From assembly GCA_034530615.2 (NCBI GenBank), contig JAVRCV020000028.1, forward strand, positions 1 to 64,000: DNA of 64,000 bases. Direction: 5' to 3'. Below are positions 17,231 to 49,251 of the stretch, in pieces (positions within the stretch are counted from its first letter, which is position 1; every line of letters begins with the position of its first letter). Below the pieces are notes generated by a model. That model had not been told where the DNA came from. It made no database searches and saw only the letters and a program-made list of their open reading frames with translations. A program made the position numbers and the translations under genes. This DNA is from Aulosira sp. ZfuVER01. Its GTDB lineage: Bacteria; Cyanobacteriota; Cyanobacteriia; Cyanobacteriales; Nostocaceae.

Positions 17231-17770
17231 TCAATGATTATCAAGAATAAATCTTTGATATCTTTTGAGAATAAATGTGTTATTTTTTTTGATCAAATCA
17301 CCAGTTAAAAGTACTGGTAAACGCTCTTGATAGGCTTTAATAGCAAGAATATATGCTTGTCCAGCTAGTTCTGTTTTAATTAGACGCAATTTATCAAAAA
17401 CTACACCAAGTAATGTAATTTCCCCACTTAATTGGTCGGCATTAGGAGCTTCAATTCGCATAATTACTCCCTGAATTGTAATATTAGAGACATTAGTTAT
17501 TAGGTCACTTAAAATGTCAATCTGTGACCGATTTTCAACTTCTTCTAATATTTCAATAGCTTCCTGGATGCGAGTAGGATAATCACCTAGATGTTGATTA
17601 TTTGGTAACAAAATTTCAAATTCATCATGTTCTGGTTCTGGTTTAAGCCAAACTGTAGCATGATCAAGAAAAGGACGGTCTTCATGCCAACCATGAGATT
17701 GTAAGTAGTCCTTTAGTTGTTGTGGTTCGATAGTTTTGAGAATTTCTGCATCCCGCACAGTAACTTTCAT
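17231..17770 (-). CDS. Hypothetical protein, partner of the DUF4365 gene
   Basis: 179 aa; YL...GW..EILLP...LGDY N-domain; ATGA overlap with the upstream gene. Confidence 0.75.
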   Translation of the reverse strand: MKVTVRDAEILKTIEPQQLKDYLQSHGWHEDRPFLDHATVWLKPEPEHDEFEILLPNNQHLGDYPTRIQEAIEILEEVENRSQIDILSDLITNVSNITIQGVIMRIEAPNADQLSGEITLLGVVFDKLRLIKTELAGQAYILAIKAYQERLPVLLTGDLIKKNNTFILKRYQRFILDNH

Positions 17771-18264
17771 GGTTTTATTCCTTGACCAATTCCTTGCATA
17801 ATTGATTGAAGCGCGGCAACTGTAAATTGATTGGTTCTTGGTATGTTAATAGTTACAGCAGTTGTGTTCTGTGTTAAAACCATTCCCCTAAGAGATACCC
17901 AATATCCGCAATATCTCATGCAGAGTTCTGTTTCCGACTGTTGCAAGTAGTCGGCTAAGTTATCAGGGATTAACACCACAAGTAAAATTCTGGGAATGGC
18001 GAAGTTATCTAATCTCAAGTCATTGTAGTTTTTGAGTTTGAGAGGATAGCGAATAGCATTGTTGTCGAGAACGTCTCTTGATGTCGATTTTAACTGTAAT
18101 TCTAAGCGTGGCGATCGGATGCGTCCCGTACCTCCCTTAGCGGCTATACCTAAGTCTACGCTGTCATCGTCTACTTCCGGTCTGTAGACAGAATAGCCAG
18201 CAACTGATGCAACTGCTCGGACATAAGCGTTACTGAATTGTTCTTTTTGTTGATTAACATCCAC
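17767..18264 (-). CDS. DUF4365-family protein (PD-(D/E)XK nuclease-like fold)
   Basis: QKEQFS.AYV.AVA..AGY, DDDSVD, LELQLKST, YNDLR. GTG start at 18264 with GAGG RBS. Confidence 0.82.
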   Translation of the reverse strand: MDVNQQKEQFSNAYVRAVASVAGYSVYRPEVDDDSVDLGIAAKGGTGRIRSPRLELQLKSTSRDVLDNNAIRYPLKLKNYNDLRLDNFAIPRILLVVLIPDNLADYLQQSETELCMRYCGYWVSLRGMVLTQNTTAVTINIPRTNQFTVAALQSIMQGIGQGIKP

Positions 18265-18301
18265 GCTTACGCCGCCTCTATTTTTGAATTTTGAATTGGT
18301 A

Positions 18302-19567
18302 TTACTCCTCTTCATCCCAATCATCATCTTCGCTCCAGTACTGTTGCGGTGCATCACCGTGAATTTCTAAAATCTTGGCTTTTTTAATTTTGTTATCTGG
18401 CGGATCAATTCTTTCTAATTGCACATAAAATTCCCAATTGTCGCCAAAATCATAAAGATAGGTCATGCTTGTACCTGGTTCTAGAGCTAAATCACCAATG
18501 CGGACTTGATCGGCAAATGGGGGTGATTCCATGTAGGGATGACCAATTTTACAAGTGCGACCAAAACGGTCTTTATAACTAAATTCGTATAGGTGATCGT
18601 AGTCAAAATCAAAAGCATCGAGAATTGTACTAGCTAGTGAGCTTAATTGCCTTTTTGCAGGTATCGCAATACGTCGCCAAGACCTAGAGACAGATACTTT
18701 AAAAATATAAATCCCATCAGTGAAGCTTTGTTTGGGAAGAGTTAAATTATGCTCCCATTCGGGGAAGAATGGTTTAAAAATTGGCTGCAATTCGCCAAAA
18801 TTTATATCTACCTTATCCTCAAACTTTCCTGCCATACCAATGGGAAAGAGCAACCTAAATATAGCATCACCAAGAGATAAACGTTGCACGCTAGTAATGC
18901 GCCATCCTTTACCTTCTTGTGGTTTTCCTTGTTTGATAGCTAAGAATCCAAATAATTCTAACAGAGCGATATTATGCAATCCAGGATAATAGCTCACATC
19001 CTGTTGGTCTTCATATTTGGTAAACTTTAATCCTTTATCTGGTACACGCGCCCAAAATTGAATACACTTAAATAAATTATTCCATGTATCTTGACGTTCA
19101 CCTAAAATCTCGTTATTTCCCCAAATTAACCAGGCTTCTAGTAAAGTAAAATAACGTTCTGTTAAATTGAGGCTAGACCAAGATTCTAAGACAGCTTCAT
19201 CTAATAATAAAATCTGTTTTTTACCTTGGGATCTAAGTTGGACTATTCCCGAACTGCGTAATAATAAATAAAGTCCATTGATGTAAGGGTATGATTTTTG
19301 GACAGGACGTTTAAGTTTAGTTTCGATTGGGTGACTTAAACGTGAATTTAGTTCTGATAATACTTTTAAAGGCAGAAGATGATTAACACTACTTACTTCC
19401 ACGCCTTTCGGTTGGAGAAAATCTATTAAGATTTGAAAGTCATGCAGAATTTCACCGGGTTGATTTTCATCAATGCTTAGTTCTTTGAGAAGTTGTTGCT
19501 GTGACTCTGTTAAGGAAGGTAGTTCGGGATTGAGTGTGCGTTCTAATCTCGCAAATAAGTCTTCCAT
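18302..19567 (-). CDS. Plasmid pRiA4b ORF-3 family protein
   Basis: C-terminal WRRIAIP...ILDAFDFDYDHLYEF...YLYDFGDNWEF motif. Confidence 0.85.
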   Translation of the reverse strand: MEDLFARLERTLNPELPSLTESQQQLLKELSIDENQPGEILHDFQILIDFLQPKGVEVSSVNHLLPLKVLSELNSRLSHPIETKLKRPVQKSYPYINGLYLLLRSSGIVQLRSQGKKQILLLDEAVLESWSSLNLTERYFTLLEAWLIWGNNEILGERQDTWNNLFKCIQFWARVPDKGLKFTKYEDQQDVSYYPGLHNIALLELFGFLAIKQGKPQEGKGWRITSVQRLSLGDAIFRLLFPIGMAGKFEDKVDINFGELQPIFKPFFPEWEHNLTLPKQSFTDGIYIFKVSVSRSWRRIAIPAKRQLSSLASTILDAFDFDYDHLYEFSYKDRFGRTCKIGHPYMESPPFADQVRIGDLALEPGTSMTYLYDFGDNWEFYVQLERIDPPDNKIKKAKILEIHGDAPQQYWSEDDDWDEEE

Positions 19568-21164: not shown

Positions 21165-21186
21165 AAACCCTGAGTAACCCCAGGGC
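21165..21186 (-). terminator. Probable terminator of the NRPS transcript
   Basis: Minus strand CCCTGGG-GTTA-CTCAGGG-TTTT about 150 bp after the NRPS stop. Confidence 0.5.
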
Positions 21187-21334: not shown

Positions 21335-24300
21335 TTACGCTTCCGTACCCTTGGTTAAGCAATTCCGCAATTTTTCTGCAAGAACTTTTACAGATGGTTC
21401 GTTGAGTAAAGTCAAGTGAGAGCCAGGAATATAATGAATATCTATACCGCCAGTTACTAACTGACCCCAACCAAATTGCGGATCGTATTTTACACCTACT
21501 GCCTCACTTCGTGTCTCATCCTCAGTGCGCAGGAGAACGATTTGACCAGGATAAACTTGGAAATTATATTTTTTGACAGCTTGTAAATTAGTTTCCATGA
21601 CTTCTATATGCTGGTCAGTCTCCAATAGATGTTGAGTAATATCTAATAAATAATTAGGCCGTTCATTCTGGAAACGCTTATATCTTTGCTGCAAAAAGTA
21701 CTTGCCTCTATTGAAATTATCTTTTGCCCAATTGCGCCAAACTTCCGCCCTTTGCCAAAGGTAAGCTGGCCCTAGCTGTAAAAGATTATTGAAATGCTCA
21801 ACAATTCGCTTGAGGAATGGCGATCGCTGGTCACAACCTGGAATACTACTATCTAACATCGCCAGAAGAGCGACTTTTTGCCCTTGGCGTTGGAGTTGTT
21901 GCGCCATCTCGAAGGCAACTATACCACCAAAGGAGTATCCTCCCAGATAATAAGGCCCTTGAGGTTGAAGGGTTTGAATTTCTCGAATATAGTGGGCTGC
22001 CATGTCTTCAATTCGAGTTAGGAGAGGCTGTTTACCATCTAGCCCTTGTGGTTGTATTCCGTAAAATGGGCGATCGACTCCTAAATGCATTGCCAATTCC
22101 CGGAAACACAGCACTTCACCACCCAACCCATGTATACAAAAGAAAGGTGGTTTATCGCCTTGGGGTTGAATTGTCACCAAAGATGACCAAGCTGCTGGTG
22201 TAGTTACATTCAATCCTGTTTGCGGTTGCAGAATTTTCGCTAAAGATTCAATTGTTCCGGCTTGAAATAGGGTTGCCAATGGCAAATTTTTACCGAAAGC
22301 CTGCTCAATTTCCCAAAACAGCTTAATTGCTAACAGTGAATGTCCGCCCAATTCAAAGAAATTATCTCTCACCCCTATCGGCTGTACGCCCAAAACTTGT
22401 TGCCAAATTTCCACTAGTTGCTGTTCTACTTGATTCCGGGGTAGCACAATACTGACAGCAGAATTCCCACTGGCTGGTGCGGGTAGGACGCGGCGATCTA
22501 CCTTGCCATTCGGTGTCAGGGGTAGCTGTGGCAGAAAGACAAAGGCAGAGGGCACCATATATTCCGGCAATCTCTGTTGTAAATAGCGCCGCAATTCCTC
22601 TTGGCTGGGTGATGGTTGCGATTCAGCCACCAAATAGGCAACTAAGCGTTTGTCTCCGGGAACATCTTCTCTAGCGATGACTACAGTCTGCTTGATTGCT
22701 GGATGTTGCTCAAGTATAGTTTCAATTTCGCCCAATTCAATGCGGAAACCGCGCAACTTCACTTGATAGTCCAAGCGTCCGAGAAACTCAATATTGCCAT
22801 CACTCAGATAGCGACATAAATCTCCAGTTTTATAGAGTCGCTGCGATGCGAAATTCTCCCCAGGATAAACAATAAATTTTTCCTTTGTCAGTTCTTCTCG
22901 GTGCAGATAACCTCTAGCCAAGCCATCACCACCAACATACAATTCCCCAGGAATGCCAATTGGTAAAGGCTGCAAGTTACGATCGAGAATGTAGGTTTGG
23001 CTATTGGCGATCGCTCGACCAATCGGAATCGAACCTGTAATTTGGCTATGACTGTCGAGACTATAGCAACAGCTAAAGGTGGTGTTTTCTGTAGGACCGT
23101 AGCCATTAATCAACCGACAATTGCCGCCTGCTTGCAAGAGTTTTTTAACATGGGGTACAGATAACACATCACCTCCAGCTAACACTTGCCGCACTTGTTT
23201 AAGTTGGTCAACGTACTCATCTACCATCAGGTGGAACAGTCCGGCGGTTAACCACAGGATCGTCACTTGATAAGTAGCTAGTGCTTGTGCTAATTCTGGC
23301 AGCGTTGGTGTTTGGGGCGGCATAATTACCAACCGGGCACCGTTGAGCAAACATCCCCAAATTTCAAAGGTAGAGGCATCAAAGGAGATGGGTGCTAATT
23401 GTAAAAATACATCGGCGGCAGTGATCCTGACATAGTTGGTATCTTTGACCAAACGCACTACACCGCGATGGGTGACACTCACACCTTTAGGTTTGCCTGT
23501 GGAACCTGATGTGTAAATAATATATGCTAAGTTCTCGGCTGTAGTTTGGCTCAGGGGATTTTTCTGAGAGTAGGAAGCGAATACCTCAGCATCAGTATCA
23601 ATGTAAACTACCTTGGCTCCATATAAGGGTAGCTTACCTACTAGATGTTCTTGGGTGAGCAATACCTGAACTTGAGCATCTTCTAACATCTTACAAAGAC
23701 GCTCTTGGGGATATTGGGGGTCTAATGGCACATACACTCCACCAGCTTTCAGAATTGCCAATAACCCAATGACCATTTCTATTGAGCGTTCGGCAGCCAA
23801 TCCTACCATGACTTCTGTCCCCACACCCAAGCTTTGCAAGTGGTGGGCTAATTGATTGGCACGCTGATTTAATTGTTGATATGTTAGTTGTTGCTGCCCA
23901 AAGACGAGGGCTACAGCATCAGGTGTGGCTGTTACCTGGTTTTCAAATATTTGCTGGATGCTCGCTTGTCTTGGGTAGTCGGTTTGAGTTTGATTCCACT
24001 GCCATAATTGCTGCTGTTCAGCAGTTGTGAGTAAGGGGAGGTGGGAAATGGGTTTTTCTGGTTGAGCGATAATCGCTGTCAATAATGTCTGGAAATGCCC
24101 CAACATCCGGCTGATGCTTCCATCTTCCCAGAGGTCGGTGTTATATTCGACGCTGCCTTTGATGCCTGTGGCGGTTTCGCTGAGTTCAAAGGTTAAATCG
24201 AATTTGGCTGTGCCTGTATGTACTGGCAAGGTGGTAATGTCGATTCCTGGTAGTTCCAGTTCTTGGTTGAAGGCGTTCTGGAGGACAAACATCACCTGGA

Positions 24301-27274
24301 AGAGGGGATGGTAACTTAAAGAACGCTCTGGTTGCAGGTGTTCGACAAGTTTTTCAAAGGGCAGGTCGGCGTGGGCATAAGCATTTAATGCCACTGTCCG
24401 CACTTGCCCTAGGAGTTGGCGAAAGCTGGGATTGCCTCCTAGATGGCTGCGTAATACTAAGGTGTTGACAAAAAAGCCAATTAGCCCTTCGGTTTCTGCA
24501 TGGTTGCGTCCAGCGATCGCTGAACCAATTAAAATATCTTCTTGTTGGCTATATCGGTAAAGCAGAGTTTGCAGTCCTGCCAACAAAGTCATGAACAGAG
24601 TGACGCCTTCTTGCTGTGACAGCTTTTGCAAGGCTTGAGTTAATTCCTGGGATAAGGTGAATGTCTGCCTTTCACCCTGGTATGTCTGGACTAGAGGCCG
24701 GGGGCGGTCTGTGGGTAATTCTAGTAATGGTGCAGCGCCTGCTAGTTGCTGTTGCCAATAGTTAAGTTGGTTTTCGAGTACTTCACCTTTTAGCCATTGT
24801 CTTTGCCAAACAGCATAGTCGGCATACTGAATCGGCAATTCGACCAGAGGGTTGGGTTGGTTGTGGGCAAACGCTGGATATAGTTGGGTTAACTGTTGCC
24901 AGAGGATACCCATTGACCACCCATCACTGGCGATGTGGTGCATCACTAACAGTAAGATGTGTTCTTCTGCGTCAAGTTGGAGTAAGCAGCCACGCAACAT
25001 CAGGTCGGTGGCGAAGTTGAAGGGTCGTTGTGTTTGCTGCTGTAGTAATTGCTCGATTTGAGCGGGGCGATCGCTCTCTGGTATATCTTGGAGGTTGAAT
25101 ACTAATAGTTCTACGGCACGGGGTGGTTGGATAACTTGGATGGGGTTGCCATCTTCGATAATAAAGTTGGTGCGTAGGGCTTCGTGGTGCGCAACTATTG
25201 CATCTAGGGATTTTTGCAGAATTGTGATGTTAAGCGCACCTTGTAATTGCAGTGCTTCTGCAATGTGATAAATTGAGTTGCCCGGTTGGAGTTGTTCCCA
25301 AAACCACAAGCGCTGCTGGGCGAATGATAAGGGTAGTGATGTGCGGTTAGCTTTAGGTATTTGCCGTAACTGCTGGGTGTTGTGCGATCGCTGTGCGATG
25401 AACTGTGCTAACTGGGCAATTGTGGGTTGGGCAAACAGCGATTGTAAGGCGATTTCTACTTTAAAAGCTTGGCGAATGCGCGAAATCGCTTGAGTTGCTA
25501 GTAGGGAGTGTCCGCCTAGTTCAAAGAAGTTGTCATTGATACCGATTTTTTCTCTTCCCAGCAGTTGCGACCAAATGGCAGCGATTTTTTCTTCTGTAGT
25601 GGTGCGTGGCGCTACATAATCGGTTGCTAAACTTACTGACACTATTTCTGGCGCTGGTAAAGCTTGCCTGTCTATTTTGCCATTGGGATTTAAAGGTAGA
25701 GCATCTAAAAATACAAATGCGGCAGGCACCATGTAGTCAGGTAGCTTACCTTGCAAAAAGCTGCGCAATTCGCTCTGGGTAGGAACTTGTTTGGATTGAG
25801 CAACAATATATGCTACTAGCTGCTTGTTGCGGGACACATCTTCTCTATCTATAACTATGGCCTGTTTCACCGCCAGATGTTGAGCGATCGCGGTTTCAAT
25901 TTCTCCCAATTCAATGCGGAAGCCACGGATTTTTACCTGGTGATCGATTCTTCCTAAAAATTCTATGTTTCCATCTGGTAAGAAACGTGCTAAATCTCCA
26001 GTTTTATATAGGCGGGTTCCGGCTTCGCTATCAAAGGGGTTAGGTATAAACTTCTGCTTAGTTAATTCTGGACGGTTGAGATAGCCTCTGGCTAAACCCA
26101 TACCACCAATGTGTAATTCCCCTGCTTCTCCCACTGGTACAGGCTGTAAATCTTCATCCAGAATATAAATTTGTGTATTGGCAATAGGGCGACCGATCGG
26201 TGCAAAACTGTAATCAGTTCCTCGTTGGCAAGTCCAAAAGGTAGCATCAATCGCCGCTTCTGTTGGGCCATAGCAATTCACGAGAACATTATCCAACTGC
26301 AAACGGGCAAAGAACCGTTCTACAAGTTCAATAGGTAACGCTTCGCCGCCACTGGTAATGTGTCTGAGACTTTGACAATTCTCGATTCCCTCCTCTTCCA
26401 GTAATACACGCATCATGGAGGGTACTAAAGCCATGACGGTGATTTGCTGCTTGGTAATTGTCTCGATCAGGTAGGTTGGATCTTGATGCCCACCTGGACG
26501 AGCCATAATTAGCTGTGCCCCAAACAACAAAGTCCAAAATATCTGCCAAACAGATGGGTCAAAGCTAAAAGAAATAGTCTGTAAAACTTTATCTTGCGGA
26601 GTTAATTTAAAGGTATTTTGTCGCCAGTAAAGCGTATTACAAATACTACGATGGGCGATCGTTACACCTTTGGGCTTTCCTGTAGAACCTGATGTATAGA
26701 TTACATAGCTTAAATTATCAAGTGTGACTTCAGTTACAGGATTTTCTTGGCTATTATGAGCAATAATTTCCCAATCTGAGTCTAAACAAACAACTTGTGT
26801 TTGAGCTGTAGTTAGGTTCTTAGCTAATGACTTTACAGTTAAGATTAAAGGCGTTTGAGTATCTTCTAATATAAAGGTTAAACGTTCTTGAGGATAGGCT
26901 GGGTCCAAGGGTACATAAGCTGCACCCGCCTTGAGGATACCTAACAGACCGACCACCATTTCCAGAGAACGTTCTAAACAAATGCCAACCAATACCTCTG
27001 GGCCAACGCCTAAGTTTTTTAGATAGTTTGCCAGTTGATTAGCTCTGGTATTTAATTCACGATAAGTCAATTGTTGGTTGCCAAATATTACAGCCACCGC
27101 ATTGGGTGTCTGCTCAACTTGTGCCGTAAATAATTCATGAAGACACAAATTTGTAGTGTGAATTCCTTCAGTTTCGTACCACTCCTGCCAAATTTGCCTA
27201 TCTGCGTGAATATTGTGCTGATATTCAAATTTTCTACTAACTATACTCATAATAAAAAAAATTAATCTATTCAA
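21335..27274 (-). CDS. Two-module non-ribosomal peptide synthetase A-T-C-A-T-TE
   Basis: Two YTSGSTGKPKG/YGPTE/YKTGD A domains, two GGHSL carrier domains, C domain HHIASDGWS, TE GYSFGG. Start may be the ATG at 27250. Confidence 0.96.
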   Translation of the reverse strand: MNRLIFFIMSIVSRKFEYQHNIHADRQIWQEWYETEGIHTTNLCLHELFTAQVEQTPNAVAVIFGNQQLTYRELNTRANQLANYLKNLGVGPEVLVGICLERSLEMVVGLLGILKAGAAYVPLDPAYPQERLTFILEDTQTPLILTVKSLAKNLTTAQTQVVCLDSDWEIIAHNSQENPVTEVTLDNLSYVIYTSGSTGKPKGVTIAHRSICNTLYWRQNTFKLTPQDKVLQTISFSFDPSVWQIFWTLLFGAQLIMARPGGHQDPTYLIETITKQQITVMALVPSMMRVLLEEEGIENCQSLRHITSGGEALPIELVERFFARLQLDNVLVNCYGPTEAAIDATFWTCQRGTDYSFAPIGRPIANTQIYILDEDLQPVPVGEAGELHIGGMGLARGYLNRPELTKQKFIPNPFDSEAGTRLYKTGDLARFLPDGNIEFLGRIDHQVKIRGFRIELGEIETAIAQHLAVKQAIVIDREDVSRNKQLVAYIVAQSKQVPTQSELRSFLQGKLPDYMVPAAFVFLDALPLNPNGKIDRQALPAPEIVSVSLATDYVAPRTTTEEKIAAIWSQLLGREKIGINDNFFELGGHSLLATQAISRIRQAFKVEIALQSLFAQPTIAQLAQFIAQRSHNTQQLRQIPKANRTSLPLSFAQQRLWFWEQLQPGNSIYHIAEALQLQGALNITILQKSLDAIVAHHEALRTNFIIEDGNPIQVIQPPRAVELLVFNLQDIPESDRPAQIEQLLQQQTQRPFNFATDLMLRGCLLQLDAEEHILLLVMHHIASDGWSMGILWQQLTQLYPAFAHNQPNPLVELPIQYADYAVWQRQWLKGEVLENQLNYWQQQLAGAAPLLELPTDRPRPLVQTYQGERQTFTLSQELTQALQKLSQQEGVTLFMTLLAGLQTLLYRYSQQEDILIGSAIAGRNHAETEGLIGFFVNTLVLRSHLGGNPSFRQLLGQVRTVALNAYAHADLPFEKLVEHLQPERSLSYHPLFQVMFVLQNAFNQELELPGIDITTLPVHTGTAKFDLTFELSETATGIKGSVEYNTDLWEDGSISRMLGHFQTLLTAIIAQPEKPISHLPLLTTAEQQQLWQWNQTQTDYPRQASIQQIFENQVTATPDAVALVFGQQQLTYQQLNQRANQLAHHLQSLGVGTEVMVGLAAERSIEMVIGLLAILKAGGVYVPLDPQYPQERLCKMLEDAQVQVLLTQEHLVGKLPLYGAKVVYIDTDAEVFASYSQKNPLSQTTAENLAYIIYTSGSTGKPKGVSVTHRGVVRLVKDTNYVRITAADVFLQLAPISFDASTFEIWGCLLNGARLVIMPPQTPTLPELAQALATYQVTILWLTAGLFHLMVDEYVDQLKQVRQVLAGGDVLSVPHVKKLLQAGGNCRLINGYGPTENTTFSCCYSLDSHSQITGSIPIGRAIANSQTYILDRNLQPLPIGIPGELYVGGDGLARGYLHREELTKEKFIVYPGENFASQRLYKTGDLCRYLSDGNIEFLGRLDYQVKLRGFRIELGEIETILEQHPAIKQTVVIAREDVPGDKRLVAYLVAESQPSPSQEELRRYLQQRLPEYMVPSAFVFLPQLPLTPNGKVDRRVLPAPASGNSAVSIVLPRNQVEQQLVEIWQQVLGVQPIGVRDNFFELGGHSLLAIKLFWEIEQAFGKNLPLATLFQAGTIESLAKILQPQTGLNVTTPAAWSSLVTIQPQGDKPPFFCIHGLGGEVLCFRELAMHLGVDRPFYGIQPQGLDGKQPLLTRIEDMAAHYIREIQTLQPQGPYYLGGYSFGGIVAFEMAQQLQRQGQKVALLAMLDSSIPGCDQRSPFLKRIVEHFNNLLQLGPAYLWQRAEVWRNWAKDNFNRGKYFLQQRYKRFQNERPNYLLDITQHLLETDQHIEVMETNLQAVKKYNFQVYPGQIVLLRTEDETRSEAVGVKYDPQFGWGQLVTGGIDIHYIPGSHLTLLNEPSVKVLAEKLRNCLTKGTEA

Positions 27275-27949
27275 TTAATACATGACTAAAGATTCCTTCT
27301 TCAGTTGTAGTTTTGCTAAAGCTAAGGCTTGATGAGCATTCTCGAAATTATTGTCATCTTTAAATCTTTTTTCAAAGCGCTTTAAATAAGCTTCAAGATA
27401 CCGAATCCTAACATTTAAATCATCTGCACTCTGAATAAAGGGAAGATCCGATTCAACCATAAAGCGGATAGCTAGCATGGGAATAGGACTACGAAGAGGA
27501 CGAAAATTGGGATTGTGCAAACCAGGAGTTTGATTGCGCTTGTGAAATTCTCCTAGCATCAATCCTGATTCTACAAATAAAGGTTTAAGTTGTTTTTGAA
27601 CACTATCAATTAGTCTAGGCGCATCGTCATGACTAATGTCGGGAAAAAGAAGTAATATTGCTTTATTTAACGAATCTTCTTGCTCTCTTGGTTCTAACTC
27701 TAGAAAAGTATTTAGGTACGGTAGAACTATATCTACAACTTGCTGCTGAACCAAATTATGAGAACGAATAACTCTCAGGCGAATGTAATCTAATTTTATA
27801 GCTTTTGGTGCAAATGGACACACAGGCCCAGGTCTACCTAAATCAGGATGAGGTCTAGCTAAAAACGTTTTCAACCATTGAGACGTTTCTATTAAATATG
27901 GTAGATCTTGCTGGAGTTGTTCAATTTCACTAAGGGTATATAGTTCCAT
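27275..27949 (-). CDS. DUF6875-like putative tailoring enzyme
   Basis: HPDLGRPGPVCPF, GLMLGEFH, GLHNPNFRPLRSPIPMLAIRFMVESDLPF motifs; abuts the NRPS. Confidence 0.75.
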   Translation of the reverse strand: MELYTLSEIEQLQQDLPYLIETSQWLKTFLARPHPDLGRPGPVCPFAPKAIKLDYIRLRVIRSHNLVQQQVVDIVLPYLNTFLELEPREQEDSLNKAILLLFPDISHDDAPRLIDSVQKQLKPLFVESGLMLGEFHKRNQTPGLHNPNFRPLRSPIPMLAIRFMVESDLPFIQSADDLNVRIRYLEAYLKRFEKRFKDDNNFENAHQALALAKLQLKKESLVMY

Positions 27950-28999
27950 TTTACCTTAATAGATATAATTTACTTGTTTGGGATCTAGGAATTAAACTAT
28001 ATAGGCTATTCCTAGTGGATTTTTTAAATTACAAAATGAATAAATGCAGAACTATGCTTTTGTTTGAATTATTTTTTCGCATTTAGACATTAGGCAAATT
28101 ATTTATATTAAATTTGAAACCTCTTTTCAAGTAAATCTATCTAAATATATAACCTCTATCTGATTTTTGCGACGCTTGATACACCTCTAATGATTTACTT
28201 ATTGTTCCTCATTACATCATTTTAAGAGTAATTTCAGGAAGCAAATGTGATTGCTAGATGATATATATACAATCAGAATTCATAAATATCTTAAGATAAT
28301 CACCAAAAACTATTATTTTATCTTTGTGTTAGTTAAGATCCAATAATAGATAATTTATGGACACTATCAACTAATTCAAAGCAGTAGAATCAATAAAATA
28401 AGTTTTTGTGGATCGAAAGAATATTCATAAAGCTGAAAGTAACTTTAAAAATCGTCTTATTAATGATTTACATAAATCTACGAAATCCACAATATTACTG
28501 ATGTTATTTCATACAATCTTTATGTATGAGCCTCATTTATGCAGTTACTAGCTAGCTATTAGAGGGTTATTTGCTGTATTGGGTAAAGCATTCGTGACGA
28601 ATGAAGATGATATTTTTCAAAACTCAATATTTTTACGTAAGTATAAACTGAGCCTACGAGTTCAAGCTTGAGACTTCTAACAGAATCGGCAGGAGGTCAC
28701 TTTTAGATACATTTGGGTAGCAGGATAGGAGTGCAGAGAGCAGTGGGCAATCAAGCGCCTATTTTCTTTAAAGACAGTGCCTCATCTTACTCAGCAAAAC
28801 CAGTACTCTACTAGAATCCGCCTGAACTGTGTCTACGCTACTACGTTGCTAACACCATGCGACTGGCTCCTCAGTATACTGTTTCGGTGAGCCAAAGCCG
28901 AAACAGCAATCGAGACCACTGAGAGAAACTTAATTCACCTGCGAGAAAATAGCCTTTTCTGGGAAACCTAATCAATATGACGGGTATGAAAGTACTCAC

Positions 29000-29641
29000 G
29001 TGGTTTCTTTAAACAATTCAAGTTTTATGCAACAGTTCAAAGATAAAGTTACGAATAAATTAGAGCGAATGTTAGAGCAACATTTAGTACCGCGTCTAGT
29101 AAAGTGGGGAGAATACTTAGAAAATAAAATCAGGCGTTATAAACATCAACAACTAAAGTCCCAATTGAAATTTTGTGGTTCAGGTGTGCGGTTTAAGCGA
29201 GATCTTAGAATTGACAACCCTCAAAATATATCTCTAGGAAATCAAGTCTACATTGGCCCAAATGTTTTATTAGATGGTCGTGGTGGAATCACAATTGACG
29301 ACAACACCACACTTGGATTTAACGTTGTTATCCTCTCTGCTAACCATGACTATCAAAGTAACGATCTTCCCTATGAATATAATGTCTACATTCATAAACC
29401 TGTGGTTATCGGTCGCAATGTTTGGATTGGCGGAAATGTCCTAATTATTCCAGGAGTTACGATTGGTGATGGTGCGATTGTGGCAGCTGGTACTGTTGTA
29501 ACTGCTAATGTTGAACCTTTAGCAATTGTCGGGAATCAACCTATGCGAACAATCAAATACCGCGATCGCGAACACTATGAACGACTTGCTAGCAAGCAAA
29601 AAACTCAAACTGAAGTATTAGCTCAAAATTTCGATAGCTAA
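29000..29641 (+). CDS. Hexapeptide-repeat O-acyltransferase (LbH, maltose/galactoside acetyltransferase-like)
   Basis: ILSANHD; PVVIGRNVWIGGNVLIIPGVTIGDGAIVAAGTVV. Confidence 0.88.
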   Translation: MVSLNNSSFMQQFKDKVTNKLERMLEQHLVPRLVKWGEYLENKIRRYKHQQLKSQLKFCGSGVRFKRDLRIDNPQNISLGNQVYIGPNVLLDGRGGITIDDNTTLGFNVVILSANHDYQSNDLPYEYNVYIHKPVVIGRNVWIGGNVLIIPGVTIGDGAIVAAGTVVTANVEPLAIVGNQPMRTIKYRDREHYERLASKQKTQTEVLAQNFDS

Positions 29642-47037: not shown

Positions 47038-49251
47038 CTATACCAGAACCTTAGCCAAAATTGGTTCTACACTGGTAGCAATTTCTGGGACATACACCTG
47101 AGAAACGTAGTCTGCAATCATTCTGTCGGTGTTGAACAGTGGAGAATTTGTCTTAATTGATGCTTTCATCATCTGCACCCAACGCTGGGGAACACCTTGA
47201 GCATTTTGGTCATAGTACAGGGGAACAATTTCTTCTTCCAACAGCTGATAGAGCGATCGCGAATCTATGCGATCCTGTAATTCTTGATCGCTAGTATGCG
47301 CATCTTCACCAATTGCCCAACCATTAAGTCCTTTGCCATCGCTGCCGGCTTTGTAGCCTTCGCACCACCAGCCATCAAGGACGCTGCAATTCAAACCACC
47401 GTTAAAGCAGACTTTTTGCCCACTTGTACCAGAGGCTTCTAAAGGACGACGGGGGTTATTTAACCACACATCCACACCTTGCACCAGTTTTTGTCCGGTG
47501 TAAATGTCGTAATCTTCAATAAAGGCGACTCGGTTAATAATCGCTGAATTGTGACACCACTCCATCAATCTTTGGATAATCCGCTTGCCTTCTTCATCGG
47601 CTGGGTGTGCTTTACCTGCAAAGACAATTTGTACTGGACGTTGGGTATTGCCAAAAATTTTCAACGCCCGTTCGGCATCACGTAAAATTAGATCTCCACG
47701 TTTGTAAGGGCTAAAACGTCGGGCAAATCCAATAGTGAGTACGTCGGGATCGAGTAGGGTTTCAGTCGCTTGAATTAGTTCGTAACTTTCACCCCGTTGT
47801 TCCCGTGCTTTTTTGACTTTATAACGGGTGAAGGCAATCAATCTTTCCTTCAGCACTCGATGTCGCCACCACAGTTCCTCATCGGGAATTGCATCAACCT
47901 TCGCCCACATTTCGGGGTTCATGGCCTGAGTTTTCCAATCTTCTCCCAAATACTGATTGTACAAGTCAGCTAATAAGGGAGCAGTCCAAGTAGGTGCATG
48001 AACGCCATTAGTAATGTAACCAATGGGGACTTTAGCTTCGGAATGTTGGGGATAAAGAACTGTCCACATTTTGCGGGAAACTTGACCGTGCAATTCACTT
48101 ACGCCATTACAAGCACGAGTCATCCGCAACGCCAAAACGGTCATACCAAAGGGTTCCCAAGGATCGCCCAGTCTTCTCGCACCTAATGCCAAAAATTGCT
48201 CGCGGGAAAGTCGTAATTGCGTCCAGTAGTGCGCAAAGTAGGAATCGATTAAATCGGGTGAGAAGACATCGTGTCCGGCGGGAACGGGGGTATGGGTGGT
48301 GAATACGCAACGATTCCGTACTGTGGCTTCAATGTCATAGAAAGATTTGCCAGTCCGTTCGATTTCTAAACGGGCAACTTCTAATGTACAGAAGGCGGCG
48401 TGTCCTTCGTTGAGGTGATAGACAGCAGGTTGAATTCCTAAAGCATCTAATGCTCTGACACCACCAATACCTAATACTACTTCTTGGGCGATGCGGGTTT
48501 CTAAGTTACCGCCGTAGAGGTGTCCAGTTAACCAGCGGTCAATGGGATCGTTGTCTTCGCGATCGCTATCGAGTAAATATAATGTGACTCGCCCTACTTG
48601 TACTTTCCAAATTTGAACTTTTACCAGCCGTTGGCGAACTTGTAATTGGATAGTCAGCGGTTCCCCATTTTGAGTTCTAATTAACTCAATTGGCATCCTT
48701 TGGAAGGGGTTATCAATGTAGTAATCTTCTTGCCAGCCATGACGATTTAAGCGTTGGCGGAAGTAACCTTGGCGATACAGCAAGCCCACACCCACCATCG
48801 GTACGCCTAAATCAGACGATGATTTCAGGTGATCCCCGGCGAGAATGCCTAAGCCGCCAGAGTAAACTGGTAGGGATTCATGAATGCCAAATTCTGCGCA
48901 GAAATAGGCGATAGGGTGTTCTTTGCTAAGTTGCGGTGCAACGCGACTTACCCATGTATCTTGCTGAAGCAGATATTGGTCAAACTCACGCGCTAAGGCA
49001 GATATCTGCTTCAGATAAAATGGGTCTTCTGCTAATTGAGTCAAACGTTCGTAGCTTGCTGACTCTAAAATTGCCACTGGGTTATGCCCACAGCGTTCCC
49101 ATTCTTGGGGATCAATAGTTTGGAATAAGGCTACGCGATCGCCACTCCAACTCCACCAATAGTTATAAGCCAAATCTGCCAAACGCTTCAGCGGAAAAGG
49201 TAACTTTTCACTTAAGCGTAAAGCTGCGTTAATTGCACTACTATGAGCCAT
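47038..49251 (-). CDS. glgP: Alpha-glucan (glycogen) phosphorylase
   Basis: YSGGLGILAGD, HLNEGH, FTTHTPVPAGHD, EASGTSGQK PLP site. Confidence 0.96.
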   Translation of the reverse strand: MAHSSAINAALRLSEKLPFPLKRLADLAYNYWWSWSGDRVALFQTIDPQEWERCGHNPVAILESASYERLTQLAEDPFYLKQISALAREFDQYLLQQDTWVSRVAPQLSKEHPIAYFCAEFGIHESLPVYSGGLGILAGDHLKSSSDLGVPMVGVGLLYRQGYFRQRLNRHGWQEDYYIDNPFQRMPIELIRTQNGEPLTIQLQVRQRLVKVQIWKVQVGRVTLYLLDSDREDNDPIDRWLTGHLYGGNLETRIAQEVVLGIGGVRALDALGIQPAVYHLNEGHAAFCTLEVARLEIERTGKSFYDIEATVRNRCVFTTHTPVPAGHDVFSPDLIDSYFAHYWTQLRLSREQFLALGARRLGDPWEPFGMTVLALRMTRACNGVSELHGQVSRKMWTVLYPQHSEAKVPIGYITNGVHAPTWTAPLLADLYNQYLGEDWKTQAMNPEMWAKVDAIPDEELWWRHRVLKERLIAFTRYKVKKAREQRGESYELIQATETLLDPDVLTIGFARRFSPYKRGDLILRDAERALKIFGNTQRPVQIVFAGKAHPADEEGKRIIQRLMEWCHNSAIINRVAFIEDYDIYTGQKLVQGVDVWLNNPRRPLEASGTSGQKVCFNGGLNCSVLDGWWCEGYKAGSDGKGLNGWAIGEDAHTSDQELQDRIDSRSLYQLLEEEIVPLYYDQNAQGVPQRWVQMMKASIKTNSPLFNTDRMIADYVSQVYVPEIATSVEPILAKVLV

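Follow-up and report, generated by a model that had tools for sequence, protein, structure and literature searches.

A two-gene unit in Aulosira sp. ZfuVER01 pairs a cytochrome P422 with a nonribosomal peptide synthetase that may load hydroxytryptophan

Introduction

We analyzed a window of 64,000 nucleotides (nt) from the cyanobacterium Aulosira sp. ZfuVER01 (JAVRCV020000028.1, assembly GCA_034530615.2, positions 1-64,000), and in particular the locus at 21335-27949, where a gene of the DUF6875 family, recently renamed cytochrome P422 (bioRxiv 10.64898/2025.12.11.692455), precedes a gene for a dimodular nonribosomal peptide synthetase (NRPS). This two-gene unit is real and intact, and the first adenylation (A) domain of the NRPS, A1, belongs to a group that tracks P422 across cyanobacteria, both being retained even when they are unlinked. 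We propose, as the probable reading, that P422 makes hydroxytryptophan, that A1 loads it, and that the product is a hydroxytryptophan-valine peptide (HO-Trp-Val), either linear or cyclic. The anatomy of the locus, the assignment of the enzyme to its family by sequence, and the genomic coupling of P422 and A1 were observed directly, and tryptophan hydroxylation is taken from the literature on homologues. The comparison points to an A domain that probably accepts hydroxytryptophan, and it yields a testable rule, namely pocket residue 278 of A1 versus the position hydroxylated. Below, L, G, P, and g numbers denote loci, genomes, proteins, and genera in the comparison sets, with G000 as the source genome.

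Results and discussion

The P422 and NRPS genes form an intact unit

The locus had been singled out in an earlier reading of its sequence (hereafter the original prediction), which described two genes in an operon and an NRPS that ends in a thioesterase (TE). The two-gene layout and the terminal TE were borne out: an open reading frame (ORF) of 224 amino acids (aa) is followed by one of 1979 aa, the two abut on the minus strand, and the second contains one thioesterase domain with GYSFG and GSH motifs intact. The features are:

27275..27949, minus strand: P422 (DUF6875), putative Cys-heme tryptophan hydroxylase, 224 aa (PF21780, four motifs, fold model)
21335..27250, minus strand: dimodular NRPS, A1-T1-C-A2-T2-TE, 1971 aa from ATG 27250 (Pfam, catalytic motifs, starts in relatives)
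25640..27154, minus strand: A1, code DPWATGCIDK, of the P422-linked 'DPW' group, related to Ser/Gln-type A domains (code alignment, tree)
25397..25591, minus strand: first carrier domain, T1, GGHSL, Ser590 of the 1979-aa ORF (Pfam, motif)
24005..25345, minus strand: condensation (C) domain, HHIASDG (Pfam, motif)
22502..23962, minus strand: A2, code DAFWLGGTFK, exchanged relative to close relatives (code alignment, tree)
22205..22441, minus strand: second carrier domain, T2, GGHSL, Ser1646 (motif, alignment to relatives)
21392..22147, minus strand: thioesterase, GYSFG Ser1781, His1953, grouping with the TEs of DPW-type NRPSs (Pfam, motifs)

The longest NRPS ORF (21335-27274, minus strand) starts at TTG 27274 and abuts the P422 stop codon with zero gap. 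The start is more likely ATG 27250, giving 1971 aa, because the NRPS ORFs of relatives (L001, L002, and L083) begin 22-26 nt past the P422 stop and because the resulting N-terminus, MSIVSRK, aligns to MSIVNRN of L206. The gene spacing suggests that P422 and the NRPS are co-transcribed. The GC content is 36-42% in the flanks versus 44-47% across the NRPS, which gives no hint of foreign DNA. Pfam identified two AMP-binding, two PP-binding, one condensation, and one thioesterase domain in the NRPS, and the catalytic motifs lie intact in a single ORF (GGHSL twice, HHIASDG, GYSFG, and GSH), the layout of a linear dimodular enzyme with TE release. A Pfam scan at E<=0.01 found no methyltransferase, epimerase, or reductase family in it, in line with the original prediction, which had noted the absence of all three.

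The upstream enzyme is a cytochrome P422

The product of 27275-27949 matched PF21780 (DUF6875) with an E-value of 1.1e-66 and a score of 224.8 bits, against a curated cut-off of 24.5. The preprint on this family describes P422s as Cys-ligated heme enzymes that use ferredoxin and a reductase to hydroxylate free L-tryptophan (Trp), with a tally of 41 enzymes for N1, 18 for C7, and 15 for C6, and some members forming a C-S bond; the named examples are Mc170 (N1), Ss890 (C6), Ba855/AcmE (C7), and ThnD (C-S) (bioRxiv 10.64898/2025.12.11.692455). C7 hydroxylation has been assigned for another DUF6875 member as well (PMC13307353).

The same preprint defines a heme motif, RxGxVCP, and three substrate motifs, SBR1 (Rx(M/L)x3Dx2F), SBR2 (Dx2(Q/H)x3K), and SBR3 (MxGxF). 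Here the heme motif is RPGPVCP (R39, C44), and the substrate motifs are DSVQKQLK (SBR2; Q118, K122), MLGEF (SBR3; M131, F135), and RFMVESDLPF (SBR1; R162). R39, G41, C44, and P45 are invariant in 36 cyanobacterial homologues, as are the counterparts of all seven named Mc170 residues (R53, C58, Q132, K136, M145, F149, and R176), whose numbering here is lower by 14 throughout. All four motifs together were found in just two of the genome's 5323 stop-to-stop frames of 150 aa or longer, this gene and one paralogue, which argues against a chance match. The enzyme thus resembles the published P422s in Pfam family, heme motif, the identical spacing of the three substrate motifs, and its NRPS neighborhood. 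The paralogue (C41:102004-102777, L062) is a stand-alone P422, 65% identical, with an SBR1 (RCMTEADLPF) close to that of the enzyme from Scytonema sp. HK-05 discussed below. Should it hydroxylate C6, two hydroxytryptophan isomers may be available to A1 in the cell.

The original prediction had suggested, from the motifs, a relationship to YqcI/YcgG-like heme enzymes that hydroxylate free amino acids. This relationship is correct at the level of fold. The AlphaFold model (predicted local distance difference test score 91) has four core strands among helices, as Mc170 (PDB 9X39) is described to have, and its best fold match, the only one with Z>=8 among 48,161 chains, was AglA (Z 9.4, root-mean-square deviation 3.9 A, 146 aligned residues); the Foldseek comparison proposed for this gene also found AglA (E 1.3e-3). 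AglA is a YqcI/YcgG Cys-heme N-hydroxylase that acts on the guanidine of arginine (PMC12866846), and its Cys-ligated heme sits in a four-stranded alpha/beta sandwich, a fold that P422 shares, with a Cys of its own. AglA differs in sequence (10% identity), in its arginine guanidine substrate, and in belonging to a separate Pfam family. No YqcI/YcgG Pfam family matched P422 at E<=0.01, phmmer and a profile search missed AglA, and sequence searches of the PDB with P422 returned nothing real. As for hydroxylation of a free amino acid, the preprint makes oxidation of free tryptophan the most likely reaction, and the family has already been characterized as cytochrome P422.

A distinct adenylation-domain group tracks P422

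A scan of genome contigs yielded 49 P422 loci, almost all labelled cyanobacterial, and 32 of them had a readable DPW-code A domain adjoining P422 or fused to it; the remainder had none in the sampled DNA or were incomplete. Among 66 selected neighbor proteins scanned, nothing else recurred beyond local synteny. We then compared genomes using the 154-aa core of A1 as a query. In 301 genomes of the phylum, P422 is encoded in 12, and the same 12 give the best A1-core matches (E<=1.5e-60); the next 8 matches retrieved have Ser- or Gln-type codes. In 201 genomes of the family, scored at the same threshold and with codes verified in the retrieved loci, 69 have both genes, 126 have neither, 5 have P422 only, and 1 has the A domain only. 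The P422-only genomes include two in which P422 lies at a contig end (G402 and G419) and one assembly of 1010 contigs (G391), and in the one genome with the A domain alone (G301, 93% complete), the NRPS is split and its code carries D331E.

Physical linkage accompanies this co-occurrence in most genomes: the two genes lie within 10 kb of each other in 57 of the 69 but not in the other 12, in several of which they lie on near-complete chromosomes. In the genera with mixed presence (g1, g7, g19, g137, g140, g152, g157, and g171), the listed genomes are concordant for both genes. P422 and A-T-TE also occur fused in one protein (L009, P0271). These observations support the claim of the original prediction that A1 is dedicated to the product of the enzyme, predicted to be a hydroxytryptophan.

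A1 has an unusual pocket and would load hydroxytryptophan

Extraction by alignment gave the same pocket codes as the hand alignment of the original prediction, DPWATGCIDK for A1 and DAFWLGGTFK for A2. We take the latter to be a Val-type code, and in the tree A2 falls among domains with like codes. The domains nearest to A1 have Ser- and Gln-type codes and share its W239 and D331. A1 differs from the Ser code at five of ten positions, mostly by smaller residues, and we propose that those at 278, 301, and 322 would open the pocket. Across NRPSs the DPW module is found at the start, in the middle, and at the end, retaining Asp235 throughout, which fits an alpha-amino-acid building block. Its relationship to Ser- and Gln-type domains could also mean that A1 loads a small polar residue and that P422 catalyzes a linked but separate step. 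We consider this highly improbable, since it leaves unexplained why only 1 of 70 genomes with this A type lacks P422, and half of the code positions have changed. Three P422-free loci encode DPW-derived A domains with the codes DPMATGSIEK (L113:2251-9675), DPVNTGYIAK (L118:4976-10822), and DLLNTGCIEK (L119:3558-8000), which have possibly been re-specialized.

In the pathway that we favor, P422 would bind heme b through Cys44, receive electrons from host ferredoxin and ferredoxin-NADP reductase, and hydroxylate free L-Trp, with the indole nitrogen as the most likely site. A1, with its opened pocket, would adenylate the hydroxytryptophan and transfer it to T1, A2 would place L-Val on T2, and the C domain would join the two. 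The TE would then release linear HO-Trp-Val (C16H21N3O4, [M+H]+ 320.161) or, alternatively, the diketopiperazine (C16H19N3O3, [M+H]+ 302.150). The genome encodes a phosphopantetheinyl transferase and gives 11 ferredoxin-family matches. No tryptophan 2,3-dioxygenase was found in it, which disfavors a kynurenine route and kynurenine-type substrates. Besides the substrate of A1, the position hydroxylated and the mode of release are the inferred parts of this scheme.

The P422 pocket requires a free carboxylate, which the Gln and Lys of SBR2 grip (bioRxiv 10.64898/2025.12.11.692455). Given this requirement and the N-terminal position of the residue, hydroxylation before loading is the simplest order. 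The reverse order, in which A1 loads plain L-Trp and P422 oxidizes it later, on the carrier or in the released peptide, would explain the co-occurrence and the P422-A-T-TE fusions just as well. Some P422s are reported to accept N-acetyl-Trp and abrine, and the C-terminal Trp of a released peptide is a possible substrate. We nevertheless regard this order as unlikely: the carboxylate-gripping Gln and Lys are invariant, the carboxylate of a residue N-terminal to Val is never free once loaded, and the co-variation of residue 278 with SBR1, described next, fits an A domain that sees the hydroxylated product.

N1 is the favored position of hydroxylation

According to the preprint, variable SBR1 residues decide the regiochemistry of P422s, subclade II-b (mainly from cyanobacteria and Pseudomonadota) comprises N1-hydroxylases within NRPS clusters, and Ss890 of Scytonema sp. 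HK-05 makes 6-hydroxy-Trp from free Trp (bioRxiv 10.64898/2025.12.11.692455). A public DUF6875 protein from HK-05 (P0379) is 62% identical to P422 here, without gaps, and has the SBR1 RPMTEADLTF, a motif that adjoins an NRPS of the DPWG type in L133. The enzyme studied here differs from it in having the majority cyanobacterial type, RF..LPF, and its A1 has A278. Of 72 linked pairs, 49 have the RF..LPF type, and position 278 is A in 46 of these, G in 2, and T in 1; in the 23 pairs with other SBR1 types it is G in 14 and A in 9. Because the pair here combines RF..LPF with A278, we favor N1 as the probable position and hold C6 to be a substantial but lesser possibility.

A broader reading, which we put forward tentatively as a possibility, is that P422 and the DPW A domain form an old cyanobacterial two-part cassette for making and loading 1-hydroxytryptophan, that this cassette underlies an unrecognized family of N-hydroxyindole peptides of 1-4 residues in about one third of the sampled family genomes, and that an SBR1 change together with A278G retunes it from 1-hydroxy-Trp to 6-hydroxy-Trp. 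If true, it would amount to a specificity code for Trp hydroxylated on the ring or on nitrogen, together with a series of modules shuffled in nature.

Several points weigh against the hydroxytryptophan reading and its N1 form. The A1 code does not readily suggest a bulky substrate, as Trp239 lines the bottom of the pocket and the nearest codes are of the Ser and Gln type; the node that joins the DPW group in the A-domain tree has very low support; and a literature search for the pocket codes returned no characterized A domain with DPWATGCIDK. As for position, the P422 tree nests the enzyme beside the clade with the RPMTE motif of HK-05, which favors C6 over N1, P0379 is probably rather than certainly Ss890, and the co-variation of 278 and SBR1 may reflect one or few events. 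With regard to the coupling, two genomes of one genus (G330 and G373) have P422 without an A1-type match, A-domain scoring in the family genomes took at most 19 candidates per genome, and kinship among genomes means that the counts overstate independence. Finally, P422-linked NRPSs outside cyanobacteria carry other codes (DAGDMGHVCK and DVLLIGHICK) and lend no convergent support. The first of these is found in operons of soil Proteobacteria (L165-L196), in which P422 adjoins an NRPS as it does here, but the operons are larger, the candidate A domain is unrelated (about 40% identical), and among related P422s some carry a fused kynurenine-monooxygenase-like domain. The second belongs to an independent A-T-TE and P422 pair on a contig of 51% GC (L202:5555-8936), which suggests that the minimal unit arose more than once. 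In three plasmid P422 regions, one of them without annotation, no NRPS of the DPW type was listed.

The DPW module is constant while its partners are exchanged

We compared 87 distinct DPW-NRPS proteins that no locus end truncates: 36 consist of A-T-TE alone and 2 are fusions, and in the remainder the DPW module is joined to other modules, which from their codes are presumably Gly-, Ser-, or Pro-type or are unassigned, the longest such assembly lines having four modules. The dimodule with Val, A*-T-C-A(Val)-T-TE, occurs at this locus and in none of the 87 compared; the order X-Val recurs in split forms (L098, L112, and L114), and X-Gly-Val in L097. In the closest complete relative (L206, P422 87% identical), the NRPS corresponds to A1 and T2-TE of this protein, fused precisely where the A domain ends, and other close relatives keep A1-T1-C and T2-TE with a different A2. 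As the second module is exchanged, added, or lost among relatives while A1 stays, Val would be a local choice and the DPW module the constant part. The X-Val product of the original prediction therefore agrees with the A2 code at this locus but is not fixed in the wider group. The deepest-branching cyanobacterial P422s are paired with single-module forms.

The abundance of A-T-TE forms bears on two further explanations. As hydrolysis alone would not be useful in these forms, the commonest, hydroxytryptophan could be a reactive intermediate: once it is loaded, loss of the N-hydroxyl or attack at C2 would lead to an alkaloid that is cyclized or dehydrated, such as a pyrroloindole-type Trp-Val ([M+H]+ 284.139); alternatively, single-module forms would dimerize hydroxytryptophan. 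N1-hydroxylating P422s are reported to drive ring closure at C2 when given a thiol nucleophile, and 1-hydroxy-Trp loses water in mass spectrometry. This ring closure is demonstrated for a thiol substrate only, however, and no conserved tailoring gene adjoins the pair, so that we think this route distinctly unlikely.

The other explanation draws on MysE of shinorine biosynthesis, a single-module A-T-TE enzyme that shares the minimal layout and a related Ser-type A domain with the DPW forms but differs in code, TE clade, and gene context (PMC12232313). A TE of this kind could hand the aminoacyl or dipeptidyl group on to an external acceptor, for instance mycosporine-glycine, and so form a conjugate that screens UV. 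The TEs from six MysE-like loci fall into a tight clade of their own and share 34-39% identity with the TE here, and no mys genes occurred among the 66 neighbor proteins scanned. For these reasons we reject a MysE-type origin of the TE and hold such a transfer to be very improbable, preferring release of HO-Trp-Val itself.

Relation to described systems

Lyngbyatoxin is made with LtxA, a cyanobacterial two-module NRPS acting on Val and Trp, with N-methylation and reductive release. Its module order is opposite to that at this locus, and its N-methylation and reductive-release domains have no equivalent here. Our literature search, which included cyanobacterial hydroxy-Trp and N-hydroxyindole peptides, covered few subscription journals, and did not extend to MIBiG, returned no description of the cluster, its codes, or its product. 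The text of a survey of HT-58-2 clusters contains neither the word 'tryptophan' nor the locus number of the HT-58-2 P422. The enzyme family is already in print, as is its connection to cyanobacterial NRPSs, and the preprint predicts undiscovered N1-hydroxy-Trp nonribosomal peptides from cyanobacterial P422 clusters, while its main text characterizes no partner NRPS, A domain, or peptide product (bioRxiv 10.64898/2025.12.11.692455). We did not find in print the dedicated A-domain group, its spread, or the module-shuffling series. The original prediction ranked this locus as the best candidate for an undescribed system; it stands in that no described product was found, but the unit is not a one-off, with P422 above the cut-off in 74 of the 201 family genomes.

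The gene pair is common in filamentous cyanobacteria, and this locus holds one version of it. It is not a new kind of machine, as both the enzyme family and the NRPS logic are known. With two genes in 6.6 kb and no other conserved gene, however, the locus is about the smallest test case for the predicted peptides, and confirmation would reveal a common, overlooked class of cyanobacterial metabolites and supply a hydroxylated-Trp module for NRPS engineering.

DUF6875 in other contexts

DUF6875 also occurs in fusion proteins (P0272-P0282, P0284-P0318, P0305, and P0317). In Lysobacter-like bacteria its partner is a kynurenine-monooxygenase-like FAD domain, and several eukaryotic microbes have it joined to AhpC/TSA-type domains; single cases combine it with flavodoxin/FAD/NAD reductase domains, possibly as a self-sufficient enzyme, and with a pyridoxal-phosphate decarboxylase. 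A YbaK/EbsC (tRNA-editing-like) gene follows P422 in Rhizobium etli p42d (L204:9947-11249) and in L031, L034, L037, and L038, an order that some Leptolyngbya-like loci share with symbiosis plasmids of rhizobia, where it lies close to nodD. P422 matched 42 Rhizobium plasmid records.

Flanking regions

Two non-coding features flank the unit:

28448..28526, minus strand: conserved element of about 80 bp, some 500 bp upstream of P422 (occurs once in the genome; precedes P422 in close relatives too)
21167..21186, minus strand: terminator-like hairpin about 150 bp past the NRPS stop (weak: 9 such sites versus a shuffled mean of 7.9)

The upstream element is a probable regulatory site, judging from its conservation, and a weaker second copy lies between two NRPS genes in L083 and L123. 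A promoter scan gave hits at chance level (21 versus 20.4). We rejected two neighboring genes as parts of the unit: among the loci compared, an acetyltransferase (29000-29641) matched its own locus only, and a cytochrome P450 (30030-31409) had one partial match. A glycogen phosphorylase gene adjoins P422 upstream in close relatives and is divergent from it, whereas here it occupies 47038-49251 and has the same orientation as P422, which fits an inversion of about 21 kb (about 28700-49550). A further stand-alone C-A-T-TE NRPS is encoded on the same contig beyond the window (C28:86772-90851). Downstream of the unit, a low-GC block (17231-19567) with DUF4365, a pRiA4b ORF-3-like gene, and a 179-aa ORF looks like mobile or defence cargo.

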